From Nitrososphaera viennensis EN76 (lineage in GTDB: Archaea > Thermoproteota > Nitrososphaeria > Nitrososphaerales > Nitrososphaeraceae), in NCBI RefSeq assembly GCF_000698785.1, contig NZ_CP007536.1:2070001-2102000 (forward strand): 32,000 nt of DNA, given 5' to 3'. The notes under the pieces were generated by a model that was not told where the DNA came from, did no database searches, and worked only from the letters and a program-made list of their open reading frames with translations. Of this stretch, positions 3,537 to 29,249 are shown piece after piece (the stretch's first letter is position 1; every line of letters begins with the position of its first letter). A program made the translations under genes and the position numbers.

Positions 3537-4271
3537 TTACAGCTTGGCGCCGCACTCTTCGCAGAATGCCGCGCCAGCCTCGTTCTGGTAGCCGCACGAC
3601 GGGCACTTGCCTGCTTGCGCCGGAGCGCCAGCCGCCTTTAGGAGCACAATGTCTCCTATCTTTGAAATGCCGTCCCACTGCACTTCCTTCTTTTCTCCAG
3701 CGTTAGAAACTATTTTGACTGATATCGTCGCCCTGCCACCCTGCTTTCTCAGGCCGACCTCCTCTATCTTGCCCACGAGCATCGCCTCGCCGTCGTACGC
3801 GGACATGCCCACAAGCTGGCTTATCGAAACAAAACCCCCATCCTGCGTCGGCGAAATGACTGCGGCCGGCACCGGCGTGATCGCACTTTCTGGCGCGGGG
3901 GCTATCTCTGCCTTTGGCGCCACCTGCGGCGGCGCCTGCGCCGGCGCGCTGAACTTGCGGTACTGCGCGATGGTCGCGCTGCACGCCCTGCACTTGTACT
4001 CGCCCTTTTCCACGAGCGTCACGCCCTCGCCCAGATCCTCGTTGGGGTTGTCGTAGCTGAGGGTGGGCGCGCCCTCAAAGTCGCGCTCGCACTTGTTGCA
4101 GAAATATTTTACAAACCTGTCAGCGTCAAGCCTGCCGATGCCGGCAAGGAACAACTCCGGCCCGCCGAGGTTGGCCATCTTTTGCTCGTCGTCGCTGACC
4201 TTTGCAATAGCGTAACCTCCAGAGCCGCGCAATTTTTTCTCGGCCATGTCCTCTTCTCCTGCTGCCATCAT
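3537..4271 (-). CDS. PRC-barrel-like protein with internal and C-terminal zinc ribbons
   Basis: 244 aa. Contains CNKCERDF...CRAC, a Pro/Ala linker, a PRC-barrel-like segment (LVGMSAYDGEAMLVGKIEEVGL) and a C-terminal CPSCGYQNEAGAAFCEECGAKL. Confidence 0.7.
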   Translation of the reverse strand: MMAAGEEDMAEKKLRGSGGYAIAKVSDDEQKMANLGGPELFLAGIGRLDADRFVKYFCNKCERDFEGAPTLSYDNPNEDLGEGVTLVEKGEYKCRACSATIAQYRKFSAPAQAPPQVAPKAEIAPAPESAITPVPAAVISPTQDGGFVSISQLVGMSAYDGEAMLVGKIEEVGLRKQGGRATISVKIVSNAGEKKEVQWDGISKIGDIVLLKAAGAPAQAGKCPSCGYQNEAGAAFCEECGAKL

Positions 4272-4405
4272 ATTCGATAGCTTTCACCGCGTCGGTTTGT
4301 TATTTAAATCGTGCACGTGCCAGTTTCCGTCCTTACAGTAGCTGTAGCGGCGGATACTCGACCACTTAAATAGTTTCCTTAGTAAACTAATGAAGAGGTG
4401 AAACA

Positions 4406-4498
4406 ATGAAGGCACAAGAGGGCGCGGAAAAAGAAGAGGACAAGTGCTGCACAGATTCATGTTGCGAGTCAGAGCCGTGCGGATGCGGCTGCTGCTAG
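4406..4498 (+). CDS. 30-aa Cys-rich metallothionein-like peptide (candidate)
   Basis: ATG at 4406 and TAG at 4496-4498. Translates to MKAQEGAEKEEDKCCTDSCCESEPCGCGCC, with 8 Cys in the last 17 residues. GAGGTGA lies 5 nt upstream of the ATG. It is too short for the ORF track. Confidence 0.4.
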   Translation: MKAQEGAEKEEDKCCTDSCCESEPCGCGCC

Positions 4499-18111: not shown

Positions 18112-18190
18112 CAGTCTTGCGGGGTTCTGTTACGTTCTCGTGGGTTGTGCGCGTGTACGGGTCGTGTTAACTTTCGTGGGCTCACAAAAA

Positions 18191-18610
18191 TCAATACGCG
18201 TTGTTTTCCTTCCAGATTCTAACGCGCCACCATGCAACATAAACAGGTGCGCTAATAATCAGCCAAAGCAAATACACTAGATTGCTGTTAGCCGACCCTA
18301 TTACCGTCAACACTAGCGCGAGCGAGCCGTATCCTTTAGCACCGAAAAGTTGTTTGAGGTTTTGGTGTTCAGGCACAAGTGCTACAATGATTGAAAGAAG
18401 CAAGTACATGCCAAGGAATCCCGCCCATTCCGCAAGTTCGATAGTGGCAAGCATGACAATATACGGAACTACATTGAAGATGATCGTCCATCTGCTAACA
18501 AACCACGATTCGACAATGATGCCCCAAAAGATAGTGAAAATCGCTACCAGTATAGCGCCTTGCGTCGGGTCAAGAATGGGCACTGTAATTTGTTCTAGAA
18601 AACTTGTCAA
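18191..18610 (-). CDS. Integral membrane protein (about 4 TM), passenger of element A
   Basis: 139 aa and strongly hydrophobic. The stop lies 9 nt inside the left subterminal repeat. Confidence 0.6.
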   Translation of the reverse strand: MTSFLEQITVPILDPTQGAILVAIFTIFWGIIVESWFVSRWTIIFNVVPYIVMLATIELAEWAGFLGMYLLLSIIVALVPEHQNLKQLFGAKGYGSLALVLTVIGSANSNLVYLLWLIISAPVYVAWWRVRIWKENNAY

Positions 18611-18819
18611 TTAGCGCACTAGATAAGTTTGATGTTGATATGGAGATATTCCTGAACAAGCACATTCTAAGAATGAGCGCTGAGGATAATCTAAGGTCAA
18701 CCATCAAACTATTCGGCAAGTACAAACCGCATTGCGTGCCTTACATTCTAAAGAAATTCAGGAAAAGAAAATGCGATTGCTGCAATGGCACTGGTTTTCT
18801 TGATGATCACTCATCTTGA
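18604..18819 (+). CDS. Possible small protein with a single DnaJ-type CxxCxGxG motif
   Basis: 71-aa ORF (TTG start, internal ATG possible) ending in KCDCCNGTGFLDD. It overlaps neighbouring ORFs at both ends. Confidence 0.25.
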   Translation: MSISALDKFDVDMEIFLNKHILRMSAEDNLRSTIKLFGKYKPHCVPYILKKFRKRKCDCCNGTGFLDDHSS

Positions 18820-18992
18820 GTAGCAGTACCTGCCTCAATCTCAATATGTTTGTTCTTGACGATAAACTTGATTGTTTCAGGTTGTCCGAGAGCGTCATAC
18901 ACGGGTTTAGGGATAGAACTCTGTGCTCCGCGTCCTTCGCTAAAGTTAACCCCCACTTCAAATTCAGTAGCGTCTTTCTTCCACTTGGGCAT
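18807..18992 (-). CDS. AbrB/SpoVT-like small DNA-binding protein (candidate element regulator)
   Basis: 61 aa. SSIPKPVYDALGQPETIKFIVKNKHIEIE fits the swapped-hairpin AbrB pattern (xIPkxxxxxLG...). It is divergent from the transposase across the operator-like array. Confidence 0.5.
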   Translation of the reverse strand: MPKWKKDATEFEVGVNFSEGRGAQSSIPKPVYDALGQPETIKFIVKNKHIEIEAGTATQDE

Positions 18993-19018
18993 TACTCACC
19001 ATCCACCTTACAAAGCGG

Positions 19019-19095
19019 TATCTTCGTATATAACGGTATCTCCGAAGATAACAAAAGGTATTTATATCTACGAAGATATCGTATCTACGAAGATA
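19019..19095. promoter_or_regulatory. Array of four quasi-palindromic TATCT-NCGA-AGATA sites upstream of and overlapping the transposase start
   Basis: TATCTTCGTATA at 19019-19030, TATCTCCGAAGATA at 19037-19050, and TATCTACGAAGATA at 19065-19078 and 19082-19095. Confidence 0.5.
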
Positions 19096-20231
19096 TGACA
19101 CCACCGCCAACAGCTCCGACACGACAACTAGACCGCAACGAAAAGGCGCAAAAGATTGTATGGACTAAAGGCCAAATCAAGCGTTACAACGAGAACCACT
19201 ATGTTGTACAGTCGCAGTCTGGCCGCGGTGCGTACGTTGTCATATCCACAGAAGCAGGCTGGAATTGTACGTGCCCTGACCACAGCTACCGCCAAGTGAA
19301 ATGCAAACACATCCTTGCAGTCGAGTTTTCGATAGAGCTGCGCAAGCAGGTGCAGTCATATGTAAACGTCATTCCAGAAGTCGCGGTAAACTCCTGCAAG
19401 TACTGCGCTTCTGAAAACATCAAGAAGGACGGCCTGCGCCACAACAAGTACGGCGACATTCAGGTATTCCTTTGCAAAGACTGCAACAGGCACTATACCG
19501 TAAACATCGGCTTTGAAGGAATGAGAGCAACCCCGCAGATGATTACAACAGCAATGCAGCTATACTTTTCTGGGGAAAGCCTGCGCTCGGTGCAGAAGTT
19601 CCTTAGACTGCAAGGTGTTAACATGAGTCATGTCGCGGTGTACAAGTGGATAAAGAAGTACGTCGCTCTGATGCAGGGCTATCTCGACAAAATCACTCCA
19701 AAAGTGTCTAGCACTTGGCGCACGGACGAAATGTATGTGAAAGTGCAAGGCAACATGAAGTACCTCTATGCCCTAATGGACGACCAGACAAGGTTCTGGA
19801 TTGCGCAGCAGGTCAGCGAAAGCAAGTACGTCCAAGATGTTAGGCCGATGTTCATTGACGGCGCAGCTACGGCAAAGAAAAAGCCTCGCGTACTAATCAG
19901 TGACGGCGCGCAGAACTTCCACGTTGCATGGAAAAAGGAGTACAAGGATGAAAAAGCCGTACACATCCAGCACATCCACATCAAGGGCGACAACAATAAC
20001 AACAAAATGGAACGTATGAATGGAGAGATCCGCGACCGTGAAAAGGTCATGCGCGGCCTAAAGAAAATCGACACTGCAATCTTGCAAGGGTATCAACTTT
20101 ACCACAACTACTTCCGCGAACACGAAGGGTTAGATGGCAAAACACCAGCAGAAGCAGCGAACATCCAGATTAAGGGAGCTAACAAGTGGATTACTGTGAT
20201 TCAGAACGCATCAAGAGACCTGATCAACTAA
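19095..20231 (+). CDS. IS6/IS26-like DDE transposase with N-terminal SWIM zinc finger and zinc ribbon
   Basis: 378 aa from ATG 19095. The track ORF upstream extension overlaps the AbrB-like gene and is rejected. SWIM CTCPDHSYRQVKCKH, ribbon CKYC...CKDC, and DDE blocks WRTDEMYVKVQGNMKYLYALMD, LISDGAQNF and NNNNKMERMNGEIRDREKVMRG resemble IS26 DETYVKV, TD and NNRIE..H..K.R. Confidence 0.9.
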   Translation: MTPPPTAPTRQLDRNEKAQKIVWTKGQIKRYNENHYVVQSQSGRGAYVVISTEAGWNCTCPDHSYRQVKCKHILAVEFSIELRKQVQSYVNVIPEVAVNSCKYCASENIKKDGLRHNKYGDIQVFLCKDCNRHYTVNIGFEGMRATPQMITTAMQLYFSGESLRSVQKFLRLQGVNMSHVAVYKWIKKYVALMQGYLDKITPKVSSTWRTDEMYVKVQGNMKYLYALMDDQTRFWIAQQVSESKYVQDVRPMFIDGAATAKKKPRVLISDGAQNFHVAWKKEYKDEKAVHIQHIHIKGDNNNNKMERMNGEIRDREKVMRGLKKIDTAILQGYQLYHNYFREHEGLDGKTPAEAANIQIKGANKWITVIQNASRDLIN

Positions 20232-20237
20232 GAGAAG

Positions 20238-20468
20238 TTGAGAGCCATAGAACAACTCATGGACGTACTCAAGATAATAGGAAAAGTTTCACCAATCATA
20301 TTGCTTTTAGGACTTGTCTTGTTCGAGGTATTAGTCCTATACGAGCATAGAGCAGACAATCTATTGCCAATCATTTTCTTGACATCATTCGTGATGATCA
20401 TGGTGGGAATAATTGGTACTTTGTGGACATATGTGATGTACCCAAGATTATTTTCTCGGACTGGTTAA
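20238..20468 (+). CDS. Small two-TM membrane protein, conserved passenger
   Basis: 76 aa with two hydrophobic helices, immediately downstream of the transposase. A positional counterpart sits at 27415-27612 in element B. Confidence 0.45.
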   Translation: MRAIEQLMDVLKIIGKVSPIILLLGLVLFEVLVLYEHRADNLLPIIFLTSFVMIMVGIIGTLWTYVMYPRLFSRTG

Positions 20469-21182
20469 GATGGGAATGAGTGAGATGGCTGCACCGATTA
20501 CTGCAAGAGGAATTGCTAGATATACCGCTGCGCGCCCAAGTTCAACCTGCTGAGAATCCTCAAGAGACACTATGTTTATGAAAGCAGAATTGCTAGCTAT
20601 GACGTTCGCAGTACCACTAGTCTCATTGAAGTTTGTTCCCAAAAGTATACCAAATTGGCCGCCCGTAGCATACCGTATGGTTCCTGTTCCCTCATAATTG
20701 AAACCATTTGGATTATGCACTTTATCTTTAACATTGACTTTTTGCAGGAGAATGGCGCAGGCATTTTGCGAACCGTACTTATCAACAGTACCTTGCGGAC
20801 AAAAAGTACCGTCAAATGTCAACAAGAAATATGAGGGTAGATCGGAATAGCCTAATCCTCCCTCTCCTCTCAGTTGATGGTTTGGAGCTAAGCGGCTGTA
20901 TACTGTGATATTTTTTTGTGCGGCGATCGAACCTTGAGACTCTAGATTTACTGTGATGTACATCGTTTCGTTGAGTTTAGCAGGATTCGAGATGTTGAGA
21001 AAATATGGAGCAAACGTACTCTCCCTTGACACAACTTGGTTAATTTGCAGGATAACAAAGCCTGATGAGATGCTAATTGCGAAAATTATCGCACCGGCGA
21101 TGGCTAGTCGTACCTTTAGACTAGGCTCAAGAGGAGAATTTGGATTAATAGGCGGTCTTTTATCGGGATTCCTTCTTACCAT
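20448..21182 (-). CDS. Doubly membrane-anchored extracytoplasmic protein, conserved passenger (paralog of 26695-27465)
   Basis: 244 aa with N- and C-terminal TM helices. Shared blocks with the element B protein are NITVYSRLAP/NITAFAKLQP, YFLLTFDGTFCPQGTVDKYGSQNAC/YFLWFDGSYCPTRPVDVYSSIPQC and IRYATGGQFGILL/IRYATAGVYGVAL. Confidence 0.7.
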   Translation of the reverse strand: MVRRNPDKRPPINPNSPLEPSLKVRLAIAGAIIFAISISSGFVILQINQVVSRESTFAPYFLNISNPAKLNETMYITVNLESQGSIAAQKNITVYSRLAPNHQLRGEGGLGYSDLPSYFLLTFDGTFCPQGTVDKYGSQNACAILLQKVNVKDKVHNPNGFNYEGTGTIRYATGGQFGILLGTNFNETSGTANVIASNSAFINIVSLEDSQQVELGRAAVYLAIPLAVIGAAISLIPILTSPRK

Positions 21183-21370
21183 GAGGAATTGCGGCCACCC
21201 AAGCTGCGGTCTGACGATGCCAATTTCACCAGCTTAACCATTGCCAAGCTCACGAGAGTGTCATAAAAAGGTGATCTGTGTACAGAAAAATCTTCCATGC
21301 CTAGCCCACGAAAGTTAACGGCCTTTCAAAATCAGGCTAGCCCACAGTAAGTTAACAGAACCTCTTGCGG

Positions 21371-21442
21371 GGTTCTGTTAACTTATCGTTTGCTCAATGA
21401 TATATGAGACAGATGCCTAGCCGACGGCAAATTAACAGAGCC
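21371..21442. mobile_element. 72-bp MITE-like remnant made of two abutting element ends
   Basis: It starts with GGTTCTGTTAACTTATCGTTTG (left-end type) and ends with CCGACGGCAAATTAACAGAGCC (right-end type). The ends are inverted relative to each other at about 15/22 by eye. No clean TSD was seen. Confidence 0.4.
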
Positions 21443-23386: not shown

Positions 23387-23411
23387 GCCATAGGGACCTG
23401 ACCGGCCCTTG

Positions 23412-23846
23412 ATGTCAAGCATAAGGCACAACAGGACGGCGATGCTATCATTTGTGATGGTAGGTGTCGCACTTGCATCATTATTCATCTTTGTTGCTTC
23501 GACCCATGCGTTTGCCCAAGGAGGCCAAGGTGGCGAGGGCGCCGCAGGCTCCGGCGGGAACGAGACTGCCGCGCCTGAAGTTGCTCCAGAAAGACTAAAG
23601 TTCTTTGACAAGCACGACCCTGCGCACACATGGAACGAGACTGCGCTTTCATACTTTGATTCAAAAGGAACAGAGCTGATGTGCGACAAGGTGTACAACG
23701 GCACCATCTACTATCAGATCAATGAAAACTTGTTCAAGTGCGACGACTTTGGCCTCTTTATAGCTGGCGACGAACAGGCCATGACGACAAACGGCAAGGA
23801 CGGACAGGACGGGCAAGATGGACAGGACGGCAAGGATGGAGTCTGA
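23412..23846 (+). CDS. Secreted Gly-rich protein with a collagen-like (G-x-D) tail and a conserved Cys-containing domain
   Basis: Signal peptide ending HAFA-QGG, followed by GGQGGEGAAGSGG. The domain FFDKHDPAHTWNE...MCDKVYNGTIYYQ...FKCDDF is shared with the 291-aa paralog. The tail is GKDGQDGQDGQDGKDG. ATG 23412 is preferred to TTG 23409. Confidence 0.75.
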   Translation: MSSIRHNRTAMLSFVMVGVALASLFIFVASTHAFAQGGQGGEGAAGSGGNETAAPEVAPERLKFFDKHDPAHTWNETALSYFDSKGTELMCDKVYNGTIYYQINENLFKCDDFGLFIAGDEQAMTTNGKDGQDGQDGQDGKDGV

Positions 23847-24156: not shown

Positions 24157-25032
24157 ATGTCGAATAACAACAACATCATCAAAAACAAAACGGCACTCCT
24201 ATCAATGCTGATAGTAGGTGCCGCAATAGCATCATACGCCTTTGGCGCGCCAGCCAACGCGTTTGCTGCCGGCGACGGCGGAAACGGGGGTAACGGCGGA
24301 AATGGCGGCGACGGCGGCGATGGAGGACTCCTCATTGGTAACGGCGGCGACGGCGGAAACGGGGGTAACGGTGGAGATGGCGGCGACGGCGGAAATGGCG
24401 GCGATGACGACAGCGAATACAAGAAGCACTGGAAGAACGATGACGCTGAAGACCACGTATACAAGAAACACTGGAAGACCAATCATGACGACGATGACGA
24501 TGACAGCAACGATGAAGATGAAGACTATGGAAACAAGAAGCACTACAGCAACAATGATGATGACGACTATGACAGAAAGTACAAGAGATACTACAACGAC
24601 GACGATGACAAATACTATGGCCCAAAGCACTTCAAGTACAAGGAGAAGTTCAGTGACGACGATGACGACGGGTACTACTACAGCGAGCACTGGAAGAAGA
24701 AGTTCAAATATCACCACGACGAAAGCTACTACAGCAACGTAAAGATCATCATCCACAACAACTACTATAACGACTATGACGCAGGCTCATTCTATGTGCA
24801 CTTTGACAACGAGGACTATGACAACGACGACAGCACAACGGTCTTCAAGTTCTACGACCAGCACTTTGAAGAGCATCAATGGGATGAGGAAGGCAAGTTC
24901 TACTACGACGAGGACGGAAACGAGTACCAGTGTGATGACTTTTACATGGGAAGCGTCTACTACGACTTTGACGGTGCCTTCTACAAGTGCGACGACCTGA
25001 CGTTCAGCGAAGACTTTGAAGAAGGCTACTGA
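24157..25032 (+). CDS. Secreted low-complexity protein: (GGN/GGD) repeats, then an Asp/Tyr/Lys/His-rich region and a conserved C-terminal domain
   Basis: 291 aa. Signal peptide ending NAFA-AGD, then GDGGNGGNGGNGGDGGDGG twice (a DNA tandem repeat of about 63 bp at 24281-24393). Poly-D/Y/K stretches follow. The C-terminal FYDQHFEEHQWDE...QCDDFYMGSVYYD...YKCDDL is homologous to 23412-23846. Confidence 0.8.
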   Translation: MSNNNNIIKNKTALLSMLIVGAAIASYAFGAPANAFAAGDGGNGGNGGNGGDGGDGGLLIGNGGDGGNGGNGGDGGDGGNGGDDDSEYKKHWKNDDAEDHVYKKHWKTNHDDDDDDSNDEDEDYGNKKHYSNNDDDDYDRKYKRYYNDDDDKYYGPKHFKYKEKFSDDDDDGYYYSEHWKKKFKYHHDESYYSNVKIIIHNNYYNDYDAGSFYVHFDNEDYDNDDSTTVFKFYDQHFEEHQWDEEGKFYYDEDGNEYQCDDFYMGSVYYDFDGAFYKCDDLTFSEDFEEGY

Positions 25033-25885: not shown

Positions 25886-26072
25886 GCCAAGATGCCTGAT
25901 AATCTTTTAAACAGACACGCTTCTCCCGCCTGCCTGTCATGCGCGTAAAAAGTTTTTCTTCTAAAGCACAACAGCTGCAAAATCGATCCAGCCAAATTCC
26001 ATGCTTGGTTTATATGCGATTTTTTATCTGGTTAGTGGCCAGAAATAGAAATTTTGTGTACATAGAGATTCG

Positions 26073-26133
26073 GGTTCTGTCACGTTGACGGGTGATACCA
26101 CAAAATTTTCTGCCTGTAACAGCGCGGGTGATG
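26073..26133. repeat. Left terminal inverted repeat of element B (61 bp, two internal sub-repeats)
   Basis: GGTTCTGTCACGTTGACGGGTGATACCACAAAATTTTCTGCCTGTAACAGCGCGGGTGATG. The sub-repeats are CTGTCACGTTGACGGGTGAT (26077-26096) and CTGTAACAGCGCGGGTGAT (26114-26132). Confidence 0.9.
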
Positions 26134-26136
26134 AGC

Positions 26137-26679
26137 TTATTTTGTCCATTCTTGGATTATCTCAAATCGTCTGTTTCCAGCACCTAACTTTGCAATCATG
26201 CCATACTCGCCTTGCTTCCCACCTGCATAGGTATATTCTACAACATAACCAAAAGACAGTATTTTCTTATGAGGATCATCAGAGAGCTCCATGATATAGA
26301 ACTTTTCACTATTCGGCATGATGGTGCCCATTGTATTTTTATCATCTTGTCCTTTCAAATCAGCGATTGTTAGTACTTTGTCAGAAAGATCACTTTTCCC
26401 CACTGCGGATAGCGCAGGTAATCCACCATAGTTTGTTAACACCACTTCAATCTTATCTTGCGCGATCATGATTTCTTTTGTACCTATCCAAGGTCTTAAC
26501 CTACTATCTATCTGTTGTTTGGTCATCTTAGATTGCCAAACTGCAACACCCGCCGCAACTGCTGCCGCTGCTGCCGTAGCTATTTGCGCCAAGTCCAAAG
26601 CCGTCTGGAACTCGCTCAATTGATGAAATTGGCGTGCATACAAGCTCATTAAGCTAATGCTTTTATGGTGCCCTAACAA
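26137..26679 (-). CDS. N-terminally anchored beta-rich hypothetical protein, passenger specific to element B
   Basis: 180 aa from the TTG start, or 170 aa from ATG at 26647-26649. It has an Ala-rich TM segment (LAQIATAAAAAVAAGVAVW) and then a soluble domain. The stop lies 4 nt from the left IR. Confidence 0.6.
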   Translation of the reverse strand: MLGHHKSISLMSLYARQFHQLSEFQTALDLAQIATAAAAAVAAGVAVWQSKMTKQQIDSRLRPWIGTKEIMIAQDKIEVVLTNYGGLPALSAVGKSDLSDKVLTIADLKGQDDKNTMGTIMPNSEKFYIMELSDDPHKKILSFGYVVEYTYAGGKQGEYGMIAKLGAGNRRFEIIQEWTK

Positions 26680-26694
26680 GCTTGAGCTGGCTAT

Positions 26695-27465
26695 TTGGCA
26701 AATTCAAGACCGCTCATAGAGACAGTGGCAGTTCTCGCCTTCATATCTCTCATAGTTGCTGAAGGTGTCTTGGCTATCTTGAGCGTTAGTATAATTGTCA
26801 AAGCCGTAGAGCCTAGAGGTTATCCAATTGCATATCAAAGTCATGATATAGAATTGATAGATCCATCCATGCCTACCAACAACCTTCAACTGCATTTGAC
26901 TATGGCTGCGTTTGTTATTGGAGCGCAAAGCAACATCACGGCTTTTGCGAAACTCCAACCTGTAGGAGAAGATAGGGCATTGTACTCTGAACAAAACCGC
27001 ACTATTCCAGAACAATACTTTCTTTGGTTTGACGGTAGCTATTGCCCAACTAGACCAGTTGACGTTTATTCCTCCATACCCCAATGCAAACTTGAACTTG
27101 ACAGGTATCCACAAGATGACGCTGACTGGTCGAATGTGTACTGGCAAGGTACCTATAGCGACTTTCCAGATGAGTTTAGGTACAGCACAATAGGCATAAG
27201 ATATGCTACGGCTGGCGTGTACGGTGTCGCATTAACTGATTCGCCTGATCGTGTGAATCCTTCGCTATCAGAACCTTTCATTACAATATCTGATCCCAGT
27301 GTTACACATACATTCTTTCTTGGCATTGAAGCGAACCAACTTTCCCTAACCAATCTCGGACTTTCATTCTTGATTTTACTACTAACCATTGTGCCAATAC
27401 AGTTGAAGCTATTTTCATTTCTCCGACGTAAGGGCGTCTTTGGCAAGCATGACAATGCTACCTAA
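26695..27465 (+). CDS. Doubly membrane-anchored extracytoplasmic protein, conserved passenger (paralog of 20448-21182)
   Basis: 256 aa with N- and C-terminal TM helices and the shared sequence blocks listed for 20448-21182. TTG start, so the exact start is uncertain. Confidence 0.7.
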   Translation: MANSRPLIETVAVLAFISLIVAEGVLAILSVSIIVKAVEPRGYPIAYQSHDIELIDPSMPTNNLQLHLTMAAFVIGAQSNITAFAKLQPVGEDRALYSEQNRTIPEQYFLWFDGSYCPTRPVDVYSSIPQCKLELDRYPQDDADWSNVYWQGTYSDFPDEFRYSTIGIRYATAGVYGVALTDSPDRVNPSLSEPFITISDPSVTHTFFLGIEANQLSLTNLGLSFLILLLTIVPIQLKLFSFLRRKGVFGKHDNAT

Positions 27466-27612
27466 TAACCCGATTACTAGCAGGTAGATTACTATCGGCT
27501 CGCGCTGACCTGAAACGACACTATAAACCAACCACAATATGCCAATATTCAGAAGTAAGAGCATACACGCAGCAATTCCACCTTCAATTAAATCACGAGT
27601 TTGTTTCTGCAA
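27415..27612 (-). CDS. Small two-TM membrane protein, conserved passenger
   Basis: 65 aa with two hydrophobic helices. Its ATG lies 1 nt after the transposase stop. It overlaps the 3' end of the 256-aa gene convergently, as in element A. Confidence 0.45.
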   Translation of the reverse strand: MQKQTRDLIEGGIAACMLLLLNIGILWLVYSVVSGQREPIVIYLLVIGLLGSIVMLAKDALTSEK

Positions 27613-27613
27613 T

Positions 27614-28735
27614 CTAGTTTTGCAATTTGGTTGCGTTTTGGATCACGGTGATCCACTTGTTGGTGCCCTCAATCTTTATTCCCGCTTGGCTCGCTGGCGT
27701 GTCGCCGTTCAGACCTTCATGCGGTCTAAAGTAGTTGTGGTACAGCTGGATGCCTTTCAGAATTGGCGTATCGGATTTTTTCAGACCGCGCATAACCTTT
27801 TCTCTATCGCGAAATTCACCGTTCATCCTCTCCATCTTATTGTTGTCGTGCTGGTTCTTTGTCATGACACTTACCTCATGGATGGTACGCGGGTTTGCTA
27901 TTGTGAAAAATTCCCTCTTGTACGCTTCTTTATATGACCACAAGCCGTCAGTGATTATCTTCGCTGGTCTTTTGCCAGCTACTTTTTTGCCCTTTGCAAA
28001 TAGTCCTCTAGCATCGTGGCGTTCTTTGCTGTCTGCAACTTCCTGAGCCATCCAGAACCGGGTTTCGTCATCCATCATGGCGAAAAGGTACTTCAGGTTG
28101 CCCTTTACCTTGACATATACCTCGTCAGCTCTCCAAGTATCTGAAACATTCGGTGTTATCTTTTCTAGGTATTCGTTCATCAGGCTCGTGTACTTGGCGA
28201 TCCAGCGATAGGTGCTCATGTGGCTTTTCTGGATTCCCTGTAATGCTAGGAATTTCTGTATGCCGCGCAGACTTTCGCCTGAGAAGTACAACTGCATACA
28301 GGTTGTTATTACCTGCGGAGTTGCGCGCATCTTTTCAAATCCAAGATTGAACGAGAACCTTTTGCCACAGTCGCGGCATCTCCATCTCTGAATTTCACCA
28401 TGCTTTGTTTTGCGCTTGGCATCCTTTACAATGTGTGTAGAATTGCAGCTAACACAAGCCTGAGCGTCAATTGGCTTTATGGTGGCAACAACCTTTTGAA
28501 CAGTGGCGCGCAGTTTTTGGCTAAATTCAACCGCGAAAATGTGCTTGCACTTTTGACCGCGGTACATGTGGTCAGCACATGAGCATAGCCATCCGAGCTC
28601 GCTAGCAAAGATGTGGTATTCGCCGTTGCCGCTTTGCGACCTTACGTAATAGTTGGTTTCGTCAACACGCCTTACCTGACCTTTCAATTGCGCTATCGTC
28701 AAACCCTTTTGTTCGCGATTGTTGGTTGCTTGCAC
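27614..28735 (-). CDS. IS6/IS26-like DDE transposase with N-terminal SWIM zinc finger and zinc ribbon
   Basis: 373 aa with a GTG start (an in-frame stop lies just upstream). SWIM CSCADHMYRGQKCKH, ribbon CVSC...CRDC, and DDE blocks WRADEVYVKVKGNLKYLFAMMD, IITDGLWSY and NNKMERMNGEFRDREKVMRG. It is clearly homologous to 19095-20231 but substantially diverged. Confidence 0.9.
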   Translation of the reverse strand: MQATNNREQKGLTIAQLKGQVRRVDETNYYVRSQSGNGEYHIFASELGWLCSCADHMYRGQKCKHIFAVEFSQKLRATVQKVVATIKPIDAQACVSCNSTHIVKDAKRKTKHGEIQRWRCRDCGKRFSFNLGFEKMRATPQVITTCMQLYFSGESLRGIQKFLALQGIQKSHMSTYRWIAKYTSLMNEYLEKITPNVSDTWRADEVYVKVKGNLKYLFAMMDDETRFWMAQEVADSKERHDARGLFAKGKKVAGKRPAKIITDGLWSYKEAYKREFFTIANPRTIHEVSVMTKNQHDNNKMERMNGEFRDREKVMRGLKKSDTPILKGIQLYHNYFRPHEGLNGDTPASQAGIKIEGTNKWITVIQNATKLQN

Positions 28736-28736
28736 T

Positions 28737-28790
28737 TATGGCACCATAATGTATTATGGCACCATACTATATATTTGTTATGGTGCCATA
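28737..28790. promoter_or_regulatory. Three copies of the 12-bp quasi-palindrome TATGG(CA/TG)CCATA between the transposase and AbrB-like genes
   Basis: TATGGCACCATA at 28737-28748 and 28755-28766, and TATGGTGCCATA at 28779-28790. Further copies lie at 29010-29021, about 29037-29047 (GTGGTGCCATA) and 26664-26675 (TATGGTGCCCTA). Confidence 0.5.
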
Positions 28791-28792
28791 AA

Positions 28793-29020
28793 CTAATGGC
28801 GTTTAGGTGCTTGAGAGCGTTCCTTGAAAACCAGCTTGTGATCCTCGACCTTAGGCTCAAGCTCCTGCTTTTCCTTCCATCCAAGCTCGTTGACGATTTC
28901 TTCTGGAATTGTAACAACATACTTGAAGTGGTCTTTATCGTTGTAGGTGTAGGCAAATCGCTTTTGCAGTTTGACGATTCCCTTTTCTCCTTTGACCATG
29001 ACGCTCCAGTATGGCACCAT
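28793..29020 (-). CDS. AbrB/SpoVT-like small DNA-binding protein (candidate element regulator)
   Basis: 75 aa. YVVTIPEEIVNELGWKEKQELEPKVEDHKLVF fits the AbrB swapped-hairpin pattern. The start codon lies inside one copy of the palindromic motif. Confidence 0.55.
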   Translation of the reverse strand: MVPYWSVMVKGEKGIVKLQKRFAYTYNDKDHFKYVVTIPEEIVNELGWKEKQELEPKVEDHKLVFKERSQAPKRH

Positions 29021-29090
29021 AGGTTAGATAAGCGTTGTGGTGCCATAAGTTAGAAGATATTTTGCGGACGCTGCGACCGCAAAATTCGCC

Positions 29091-29151
29091 CATCACCCGC
29101 GCTGTTACAGGCAGAAAATTTTGTGGTATCACCCGTCAACGTGACAGAACC
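29091..29151. repeat. Right terminal inverted repeat of element B (61 bp)
   Basis: Exact reverse complement of 26073-26133. Confidence 0.9.
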
Positions 29152-29249
29152 GAGATTCGCTATGGTTATATTTTGTAAGGTTATCCCTTAAAAACCACTA
29201 TGAATAATTATTACCACAGCCTTAAGTGTCACGTTTTTCATAAGGACAT

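Follow-up and report, generated by a model that had tools for sequence, protein, structure and literature searches.

Within a 32,000-nt stretch of the genome of Nitrososphaera viennensis EN76 (hereafter the window, in whose coordinates all positions are given), we delineated two transposons, elements A and B, which are complete and probably active IS6-like units of the ISDsp3 type with passenger genes. Between its terminal inverted repeats (IRs), each element carries a two-gene cassette encoding a large membrane protein with a predicted ectodomain and a small protein with two transmembrane segments (2-TM), and this cassette is almost never found outside IS6-like elements. As a tentative interpretation, to which we give somewhat less than even weight, the large/2-TM pair would be a polymorphic membrane system that ammonia-oxidising archaea carry on transposons and that has so far escaped recognition (an envelope exclusion or abortive-infection device or a membrane toxin-antidote pair), co-regulated with the IS6-like transposase by a small AbrB-type repressor and passed on as a cassette between IS6-like transposons that diverged deeply; on a broader scale, the elements akin to ISDsp3 would constitute a large archaeal family of cargo transposons (2-6 kb, with bipartite ends and a resident regulator) that shuttle conflict genes.

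IS6-type elements are usually treated as minimal one-gene insertion sequences (ISs), a textbook picture that a cargo-carrying family would, if real, contradict. According to the survey of Krupovic et al., thaumarchaeal ISs are typically one- or two-gene elements (PMC6563490), and the 2021 review of the IS6 family records a single member with a passenger gene (PMC7986276), namely ISDsp3 (PMC7986276, PMC6807381). The transposase family treated here and its assignment to IS6/ISDsp3 are already known. The literature that we searched holds no description of the element boundaries, of the long bipartite IRs, of the resident regulators with their operator-like arrays or of the breadth of the cargo, nor of the cassette family or its near-exclusive link to IS6-like transposons, and it does not mention the locus tag of the large protein of element B, NVIE_024930.

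Boundaries and gene content of elements A and B

A previous reading of the window (hereafter the sequence-only reading) had described two sets of four genes, and all eight open reading frames (ORFs) are present in the EN76 window at the coordinates that it had given. Absent from that reading were the IRs and the target-site duplications (TSDs) that enclose both gene sets. Element A extends from 18123 to 21362 (3240 bp) and element B from 26073 to 29151 (3079 bp), with five genes each, the element-specific extra genes also lying inside the IRs (Table 1). The 4.7 kb that separate A from B lie outside both units, and the sequences flanking A and B are unrelated.

The IRs of both units are long and bipartite and begin with GGTTCTGT: each element end consists of an outer site followed by an inner direct copy of the same motif of about 20 nt. 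The ends of element A start with GGTTCTGTTACGTT and GGTTCTGTTAACTT, and a second, perfectly matching block of 17 nt is found about 40 nt inward at each end. All four ends show a GG tip and an internal cTGTt (GGTTCTGTTACGTT, GGTTCTGTTAACTT, GGTTCTGTCACGTT). In both A and B, the unique, 2-TM and large ORFs lie within the unit bounded by IRs and TSDs, as in an IS with passenger genes (tIS), which bears out the earlier proposal that these genes are passengers of a mobile unit. A compound (composite) transposon was ruled out, since each element has its own IR pair and TSD and the passengers are internal. For the products of the unique genes, namely the 139-aa protein of A and the 180-aa protein of B, we found no homolog in any of the fetched loci and no Pfam or NCBIfam match.

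Immediately beyond the right TSD of element A lies a 72-bp miniature element composed of two outer IR sites placed back to back, without matching 8-bp flanks of its own. Its 28-nt terminus is found again at positions 1-28 of the window, and the two copies probably represent a family of miniature inverted-repeat transposable elements (MITEs) mobilised by these transposases.

Table 1 Coordinates of the features of elements A and B in the window (a dot marks features without a strand)
Feature	Position	Strand	Remarks
Left 8-bp TSD, element A (TCTTGCGG)	18115..18122	.	identical 8-mer at 21363-21370
Left IR, element A, bipartite	18123..18182	+	outer GGTTCTGTTACGTTCTCGTGGG and inner GTGTTAACTTTCGTGGGCT
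Unique gene of A, 139-aa polytopic membrane protein, hypothetical	18191..18610	-	AIC16745.1; cargo only in A; ORF inside IRs
61-aa PKWKK small protein A, putative regulator	18807..18992	-	AIC16747.1; divergent from tnpA; homologs beside transposase
Four palindromes TATCTNCGAAGATA, putative operators	19019..19095	.	divergent promoter region of A; all four sites of the 32-kb window
Transposase A, 378 aa (tnpA)	19095..20231	+	SWIM, zinc ribbon, HTH, IS6-type DDE; PF13610 62.9 bits, PF04434 SWIM 24.8 bits, NF033587 116.5 bits
76-aa 2-TM hairpin protein A	20238..20468	+	6 nt past tnpA stop codon; homologs in L001, L002
Large protein A, 244 aa	20448..21182	-	AIC16750.1; TM helix, predicted beta-sandwich ectodomain with two invariant Cys, TM helix; convergent with 2-TM ORF, 21-nt overlap
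Right IR, element A	21303..21362	-	
Right TSD, element A (TCTTGCGG)	21363..21370	.	
72-bp miniature element (GGTTCTGTTAACTT...AAATTAACAGAGCC)	21371..21442	.	abuts right TSD of A
Left TSD, element B (GAGATTCG)	26065..26072	.	identical 8-mer at 29152-29159
Left 72-nt IR, element B, bipartite	26073..26144	+	96% complementary to 29080-29151
Unique gene of B, 180-aa protein, one N-terminal hydrophobic segment	26137..26679	-	cargo only in B; ORF
Operator-like site TTATGGTGCCCTAA	26663..26676	.	between divergent start codons of unique and large genes of B
Large protein B, 256 aa	26695..27465	+	NVIE_024930 / WP_144239710
65-aa 2-TM hairpin protein B	27415..27612	-	1 nt past tnpB stop; 51-nt overlap with 3' end of large B
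Transposase B, 373 aa (tnpB)	27614..28735	-	PF13610 68.6 bits, NF033587 118.1 bits
Three palindromes TTATGGYRCCATAA, putative operators	28736..28791	.	from AbrB-B stop to tnpB start; fill 57-nt gap
AbrB/MazE/SpoVT-type small protein B, 68 aa	28793..28999	-	WP_144239711 (75-aa version to 29020); PF04014; co-directional with tnpB
Two further operator-like palindromes	29009..29048	.	at and upstream of AbrB-B start codon
Right 72-nt IR, element B	29080..29151	-	
Right TSD, element B (GAGATTCG)	29152..29159	.	

The large ectodomain protein and its 2-TM partner

The large proteins of A and B are homologous (33% identity over 107 aa, E = 4e-15), as the sequence-only reading had proposed for these 244- and 256-aa products, and the motifs on which it had relied, FDG..CP..D.Y.S..C and IRYAT.G, are present. 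Members of the family are 200-300 aa long and share basic residues followed by an N-terminal transmembrane (TM) helix, an NP motif, an (F)xAQ motif, a conserved glycine and a C-terminal TM helix followed by basic residues. Two cysteines (C128 and C142 in protein A) are invariant in all 28 aligned members, and P67, C128, C142 and G175, all located in the ectodomain, are nearly invariant across all 44 sequences. An AlphaFold (AF2) model based on the 44 sequences (pLDDT 89, pTM 0.76) displays a helix at residues 22-50, a beta-sandwich at 55-205 and a second helix at 207-240. This confident model backs the double membrane anchor proposed earlier, and supports a predicted architecture in which a TM helix stands on each side of a disulfide-bearing beta-sandwich. 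The ectodomain also contains N-x-S/T sequons.

The family is small: it comprises seven clusters at 90% identity in a collection of 5.8 billion proteins and 42 representatives at E <= 0.001 among 1.84 billion, and a word-indexed protein search with a 28-sequence profile added merely two distant members. Scans of metagenome DNA with narrow alignments of the large protein found nothing, and the occurrence of the family appears restricted to soil Nitrososphaerales.

The 2-TM proteins show a different picture. The pairwise comparison of the A and B products gave a BLASTP E-value of 4.3 and an hhalign probability of 0.5%, i.e. no detectable homology, and what recurs is their position. The "conserved four-gene module" that had been proposed for both elements thus holds for the transposases and the large proteins, while the 2-TM pair and the pair of small upstream proteins are alike by position alone. 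The convergent 3' overlap between the 2-TM and large ORFs, also proposed earlier, is present in both elements (Table 1) and recurs in 11 of 13 loci, where the 2-TM ORF encodes 58-94 aa and shares 7-87 nt with the 3' end of the large gene. In four elements the start codon of the 2-TM ORF lies only 1-6 nt past the stop codon of the transposase gene, which implies co-transcription. The exact 2-TM sequences of A and B are absent from a collection of 15 billion proteins in which all the neighbouring products are present; these ORFs seem to have been left out of the public N. viennensis annotation, or to have been given another start codon there.

Twelve neighbourhoods of the large-protein family were informative, three other loci (L086, L088 and L091) being too short to judge. 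An IS6-like transposase is directly adjacent to the large gene in 11 of the 12, namely elements A and B, L001, L002, L054, L083, L085, L089, L090 and the P0010 and P0015 contigs; in the remaining one, L087, no transposase is nearby and the large gene lies beside an integrase-like gene. The sequence-only reading had held that the association would be incidental if homologs were mostly located away from such transposases, and these counts show the reverse. The transposases linked to the cassette form three clades that are mutually about 30% identical, one of which is without the SWIM domain, and three gene arrangements were observed: (i) regulator, transposase, 2-TM ORF in the same direction and convergent large gene, in the window elements, L002, L054, L083 and L085, which include the four elements with closely spaced start codons; (ii) transposase, large gene and convergent 2-TM ORF, in L001; and (iii) AbrB-type gene, large gene, convergent 2-TM ORF and a transposase gene in the first direction, in L089, L090 and P0010.

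A transposase profile scan covering one genome per species retrieved 524 relatives, of which the best 80 (56-66% identity) were taken as related loci. Only one of these 80 genome loci (L054) has the cassette. Its absence from the 79 others indicates that the cassette is lineage-specific cargo, not needed for transposition, rather than part of the core transposition machinery.

Two further observations concern these loci. In L085, a second, partial unit lies beside the complete B-type element (3858-4443) and consists of a PKWKK-type gene (3858-4043, +) followed by a large-protein homolog (4072-4443) cut by the contig end, such that A-type and B-type units cluster there as they do in the window (4.7 kb apart). 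A small ORF with a single TM segment and a conserved MQLPPPPxDP motif is found upstream of the large gene in the two distant loci L085 (242-454, -) and L086 (113-289, -); it may represent a third recurrent membrane component.

Evolutionary rates of the cassette and of its neighbours

Large protein A shares 82% amino acid identity with its L091 counterpart, with proportions of non-synonymous (pN) and synonymous (pS) differences of 0.10 and 0.66 and a dN/dS ratio of 0.06, which shows purifying selection on the large protein at short range. Over longer distances, the transposase and the regulator change far more slowly than either cassette protein. Between L054 and L085 the transposases are 80% identical and the large proteins 30%; between L089 and L090 the corresponding values are 66% and 28%; and between element B and L085 they are 88% for the AbrB-type protein, 71% for the transposase and 33% for the large protein. 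A-type 2-TM proteins are always found with A-type large proteins. The pattern is compatible with rapid diversification or with a frequent exchange of cassette variants, and both are typical of conflict loci.

Small regulator-like genes and palindrome arrays

Upstream of its transposase gene, each element harbors a small gene that the sequence-only reading had labelled AbrB-like in both cases. For element B, the label has marginal but consistent support: it is matched by PF04014 (25.3 bits for a cut-off of 24.7), the RefSeq name agrees, and a profile of 12 sequences has AbrB chains as its top matches in the PDB (E = 0.015-0.024). Small protein B is 88% identical to the L085 copy, with a dN/dS of 0.055. 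The small protein of element A starts with MPKWKK and is named SpoVT-AbrB domain-containing in UniRef; none of 12 members of its family has a Pfam match, and no PDB match was obtained. PKWKK-type homologs adjoin the transposase in 13 of the 80 related loci as well as in L002 and L085. The two proteins are not detectably homologous to each other (BLASTP E = 3.5; hhalign probability of 3% with profiles of 12 sequences each). As for the "same relative order" reported for the two elements, the order of the genes is indeed equal, whereas the small gene is divergent from the transposase gene in A and co-directional with it in B.

Both small genes are accompanied by palindromes that are putative operators. 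The motif TATCTNCGAAGATA gives eight strand-matches (four sites), for 0.40 expected by chance, all of them in the 102-nt gap between the PKWKK gene and the transposase gene of A; in an exact search, this A-type motif was not found conserved in other loci. The palindrome TTATGGYRCCATAA has six copies in element B and none elsewhere in the window, for 0.22 expected by chance, and the same triple array directly precedes the transposase gene in L026, L054 and L085. A related motif, TTATGGTGCCCNA, is found upstream of the large gene in L001, L085 and L091. From these arrangements, the small proteins would be element-specific repressors acting on the transposase promoter through the putative operators, and in element B the small protein may also repress the cassette promoter in the same manner.

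Placement of the transposases among IS6 members

Transposases A and B share 55% identity over 365 aa (E = 6e-157), in keeping with the earlier view of two diverged transposons rather than a recent copy. The SWIM finger has a Pfam match in transposase A, its CxC...CxH signature aligns in B, and an N-terminal zinc ribbon is present in both. Both proteins score well above the 27-bit cut-off of PF13610 (DDE_Tnp_IS240) and slightly below the 125-bit cut-off of the NCBIfam IS6 equivalog NF033587 (116-118 bits). Identity to ISCpe7 and ISCbo1, the "long" IS6 members from clostridia, amounts to only about 27%. Thaumarchaeal IS6 copies are 48-66% identical to the nearest ISfinder reference, ISDsp3, and several N. 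viennensis copies 48-56% (PMC6563490 Table S3).

Three IS6 characters are found here: an IS240-type DDE domain preceded by a helix-turn-helix (HTH), IRs of the GG...cTGTt type and an 8-bp TSD, the latter two being hallmarks of the family (PMC7986276). The IR tips and the 8-bp duplication fit the IS6 family, but the length of the IRs and the five genes do not, and neither A nor B resembles a simple IS, which has one gene, a size of 0.7-1.8 kb and IRs of 15-20 bp.

The wider family of cargo transposons

The best 80 of the 524 relatives belong to Nitrososphaeria, Bathyarchaeia, Asgard archaea, Methanocellaceae and a few metagenome-assembled genomes labelled bacterial. GG...CC IRs together with a perfect 8-bp duplication were found at 58 of 90 transposase copies (elements A and B and 56 further related elements), as compared to none of 270 controls with shuffled flanks. 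The bounded elements measure 2125-6126 bp, with a median of 3.27 kb, for a transposase gene that itself accounts for 1.1 kb. A gene of 45-90 aa from one of eight recurrent families, which look AbrB-like, ribbon-helix-helix-like, zinc-ribbon-like or PKWKK-type, adjoins the transposase in 50 of the 58 bounded elements, and these eight families fill the same upstream position, which rules out that the small gene is specific to the cassette module. The larger cargo includes DNA methyltransferases, Mrr, GmrSD, HNH and HsdR-N nucleases, a PemK/MazF toxin, DUF4145, proteasome-like proteins and a nucleotide cyclase.

The nearest relatives of ISDsp3 turn out to form a widespread archaeal radiation (524 loci with one genome per species, in Nitrososphaeria, Bathyarchaeia, Asgard archaea and methanogens) of IR/TSD-bounded transposons of 2-6 kb. 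Their ends are complex, a regulator is resident in them and their cargo varies, with restriction-modification and toxin genes among it. A proteasome-subunit-like passenger (PF00227, 249-336 aa), an unusual cargo that recurs, lies upstream of the transposase in five bounded elements (L003-L082). Four predicted viral contigs from IMG/VR (L092-L095) each carry a transposase of the family (54-59% identity), in two cases within an IR/TSD-bounded element of 2.6 or 2.9 kb, and the large protein was found in none of the four.

Possible functions of the cassette

We lean towards an envelope-level conflict module that would exclude viruses or other mobile DNA or provide abortive defence against them, while holding this assignment at less than even confidence. 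The ectodomain protein would face the outside of the cell and, together with its hairpin partner, would block or sense invading viruses or mobile DNA (superinfection exclusion or abortive infection), a function that would give the host a reason to retain the transposon. Action at the envelope is suggested by the ectodomain, the disulfide and the sequons, which point outward; exclusion or abortive defence is suggested by the restriction to mobile elements, the rate of change and the conflict-type cargo of sister elements. Several points weigh against this assignment. The argument is one of guilt by association, topology and evolutionary rate; neither the large nor the 2-TM protein matches a Pfam, NCBIfam, PADLOC or PHROG model, and for the large protein neither solved structures nor predicted viral ones gave a match (best Foldseek E = 0.013-0.027, TM-score < 0.4); it is also absent from the phage and plasmid collections that were searched. 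Tight co-regulation with a transposase is no obvious need of a defence gene. Two relatives depart from the pattern: in L091 the 2-TM ORF is absent, and L087 (79-1999) harbors a relative of the large protein with neither an IS6-like transposase nearby nor a 2-TM partner. The neighbouring gene in L087 encodes 331 aa with a weak phage-integrase match, and the family may ride another type of mobile element there.

The main rival is a toxin-antidote (addiction) cassette, which we consider unlikely. Here the 2-TM hairpin would be a membrane-damaging toxin produced together with the transposase and neutralised by the large protein, through contacts between TM helices or through its mRNA acting as a 3' antisense, such that loss or silencing of the element would be penalised. 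A small hydrophobic 2-TM ORF conserved in position and topology rather than in sequence is what such a cassette might look like, and the convergent 3' overlap persists also in arrangements where the pair is inverted or takes another place with respect to the transposase. The strict pairing of A-type partners suggests co-evolution, both partners diverge fast, and a toxin of a toxin-antitoxin (TA) system, PemK, is cargo elsewhere in the transposon family. However, the most conserved residues of the large protein (the two cysteines, P67 and G175) lie in an ectodomain of about 150 aa that neither an intramembrane nor an RNA antidote would need, no TA, holin or PADLOC model is matched, the 2-TM proteins exceed the typical length of type I toxins, and in L091 an intact large gene under purifying selection is found without a 2-TM ORF. 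The extracytoplasmic beta-sandwich with its conserved disulfide and sequons could instead belong to a surface protein that benefits the host outside any conflict, in adhesion, modification of the S-layer or envelope, or binding of metals or nutrients in soil, with the transposon merely spreading it and the 2-TM protein helping to assemble or anchor it. In A, B, L001 and L002 the remaining cargo likewise consists of genes for membrane proteins, and the apparent limitation to soil Nitrososphaerales would suit such a role. We nevertheless regard it as quite improbable: a beneficial gene would be expected to become fixed away from transposases, which is seen in at most one of the 12 contexts (L087), the family is extremely rare, and a divergence that outpaces that of the transposase is typical of conflict genes and not of housekeeping surface functions.

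More doubtful still is a membrane sensor controlling transposition, in which the cassette would perceive contact with a virus or vesicle, or stress, and pass the signal on to the small DNA-binding repressor, inducing the transposase at times when a vehicle for its horizontal spread is at hand. It would account for a cassette that always adjoins the transposase, often in the same operon, for the AbrB-type gene immediately upstream of and co-directional with the large gene in arrangement (iii), and for the operator-like motif upstream of the large gene, which shares a half-site with the operators of the transposase promoter. Yet 79 of the 80 related transposase loci, many of them with the same types of regulator, do without the cassette; the cytoplasmic parts of both membrane proteins, of about 5-25 residues, offer little to contact a regulator; and no known signalling domain was matched in Pfam. 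An incidental association, through repeated insertion of the transposase beside a chromosomal gene pair or as the remnant of an old segmental duplication, has almost no chance of being correct. Insertion close to other copies is known for IS6-type elements, a miniature element adjoins element A and L085 has two units side by side, but the genes lie inside the IRs of units with a perfect 8-bp duplication on either side, A and B have unrelated flanks, and the association recurs with three transposase clades, in three gene arrangements and in unrelated metagenomes; we rejected it on the evidence of the IRs and TSDs. Should a defence, exclusion or addiction device be the correct assignment, it would add a new type of system to a group that matters for the nitrogen cycle and in which hardly any conflict system has been characterised by experiment, and it would show how small transposons buy persistence in archaea.

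Comparison with known systems

Classical IS6/IS26 elements (IS26, IS257, IS6100 and the archaeal ISH14/ISPfu-type) share with the window elements the DDE_Tnp_IS240 domain, the HTH, the GG/cTGTt tips and the 8-bp TSD, but they measure 0.7-0.9 kb and have a single gene, IRs of 14-20 bp and no passengers. Type I TA loci with convergent, 3'-overlapping transcripts, such as txpA/RatA and bsrG/SR4 of Bacillus subtilis, resemble the cassette in combining a gene for a small hydrophobic membrane protein with a convergent overlapping transcript on a mobile element. Their partner is a small RNA, whereas here it is a conserved ectodomain protein of 200-300 aa, and the small protein of the cassette has two TM segments, 58-94 aa and no match to a toxin family. 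Membrane proteins of superinfection or surface exclusion, of the Sie, Imm and TraT types, are encoded by prophages or plasmids; they too are small, fast-evolving membrane or surface proteins that are carried by mobile elements and act at the envelope. They differ in being borne by viruses or conjugative plasmids and not by a simple transposon, and have no similarity in sequence or fold to the cassette proteins. To our knowledge, there is no archaeal precedent. Class II holins are proteins of 65-95 aa with two TM segments (N-in, C-in); their size and the two hydrophobic segments fit the 2-TM proteins, which have no Pfam or PHROG holin match.

The closest described relative is ISDsp3, an IS6 outlier from Dehalococcoides sp. 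BAV1 with an 8-bp TSD, relatively long IRs (28/36) and a passenger gene (PMC7986276, PMC6807381). As described, it measures 1456 bp and has one hypothetical passenger and a transposase of 319 aa whose zinc finger is said not to be intact; set against this description, the window elements display sizes of 3.1-3.2 kb, transposases of 373-378 aa with SWIM and zinc-ribbon modules, bipartite IRs of 60-72 nt, a regulator with operator-like arrays and three further passengers.

The region around the elements

Between the two transposons, ORFs at 23409-23846 (+) and 24157-25032 (+) encode secreted-looking low-complexity proteins of 145 and 291 aa with GGNGG repeats and repeats rich in Asp, Tyr and Lys, and with a common C-terminal motif, YY..F.CDD; the DNA repeat families D1-D6 cover this region. 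The G+C content amounts to 54-59% at 1-9 kb and 12-16 kb and to 42-54% at 16-32 kb, where both transposons are located, a step that suggests a variable or island-like region.

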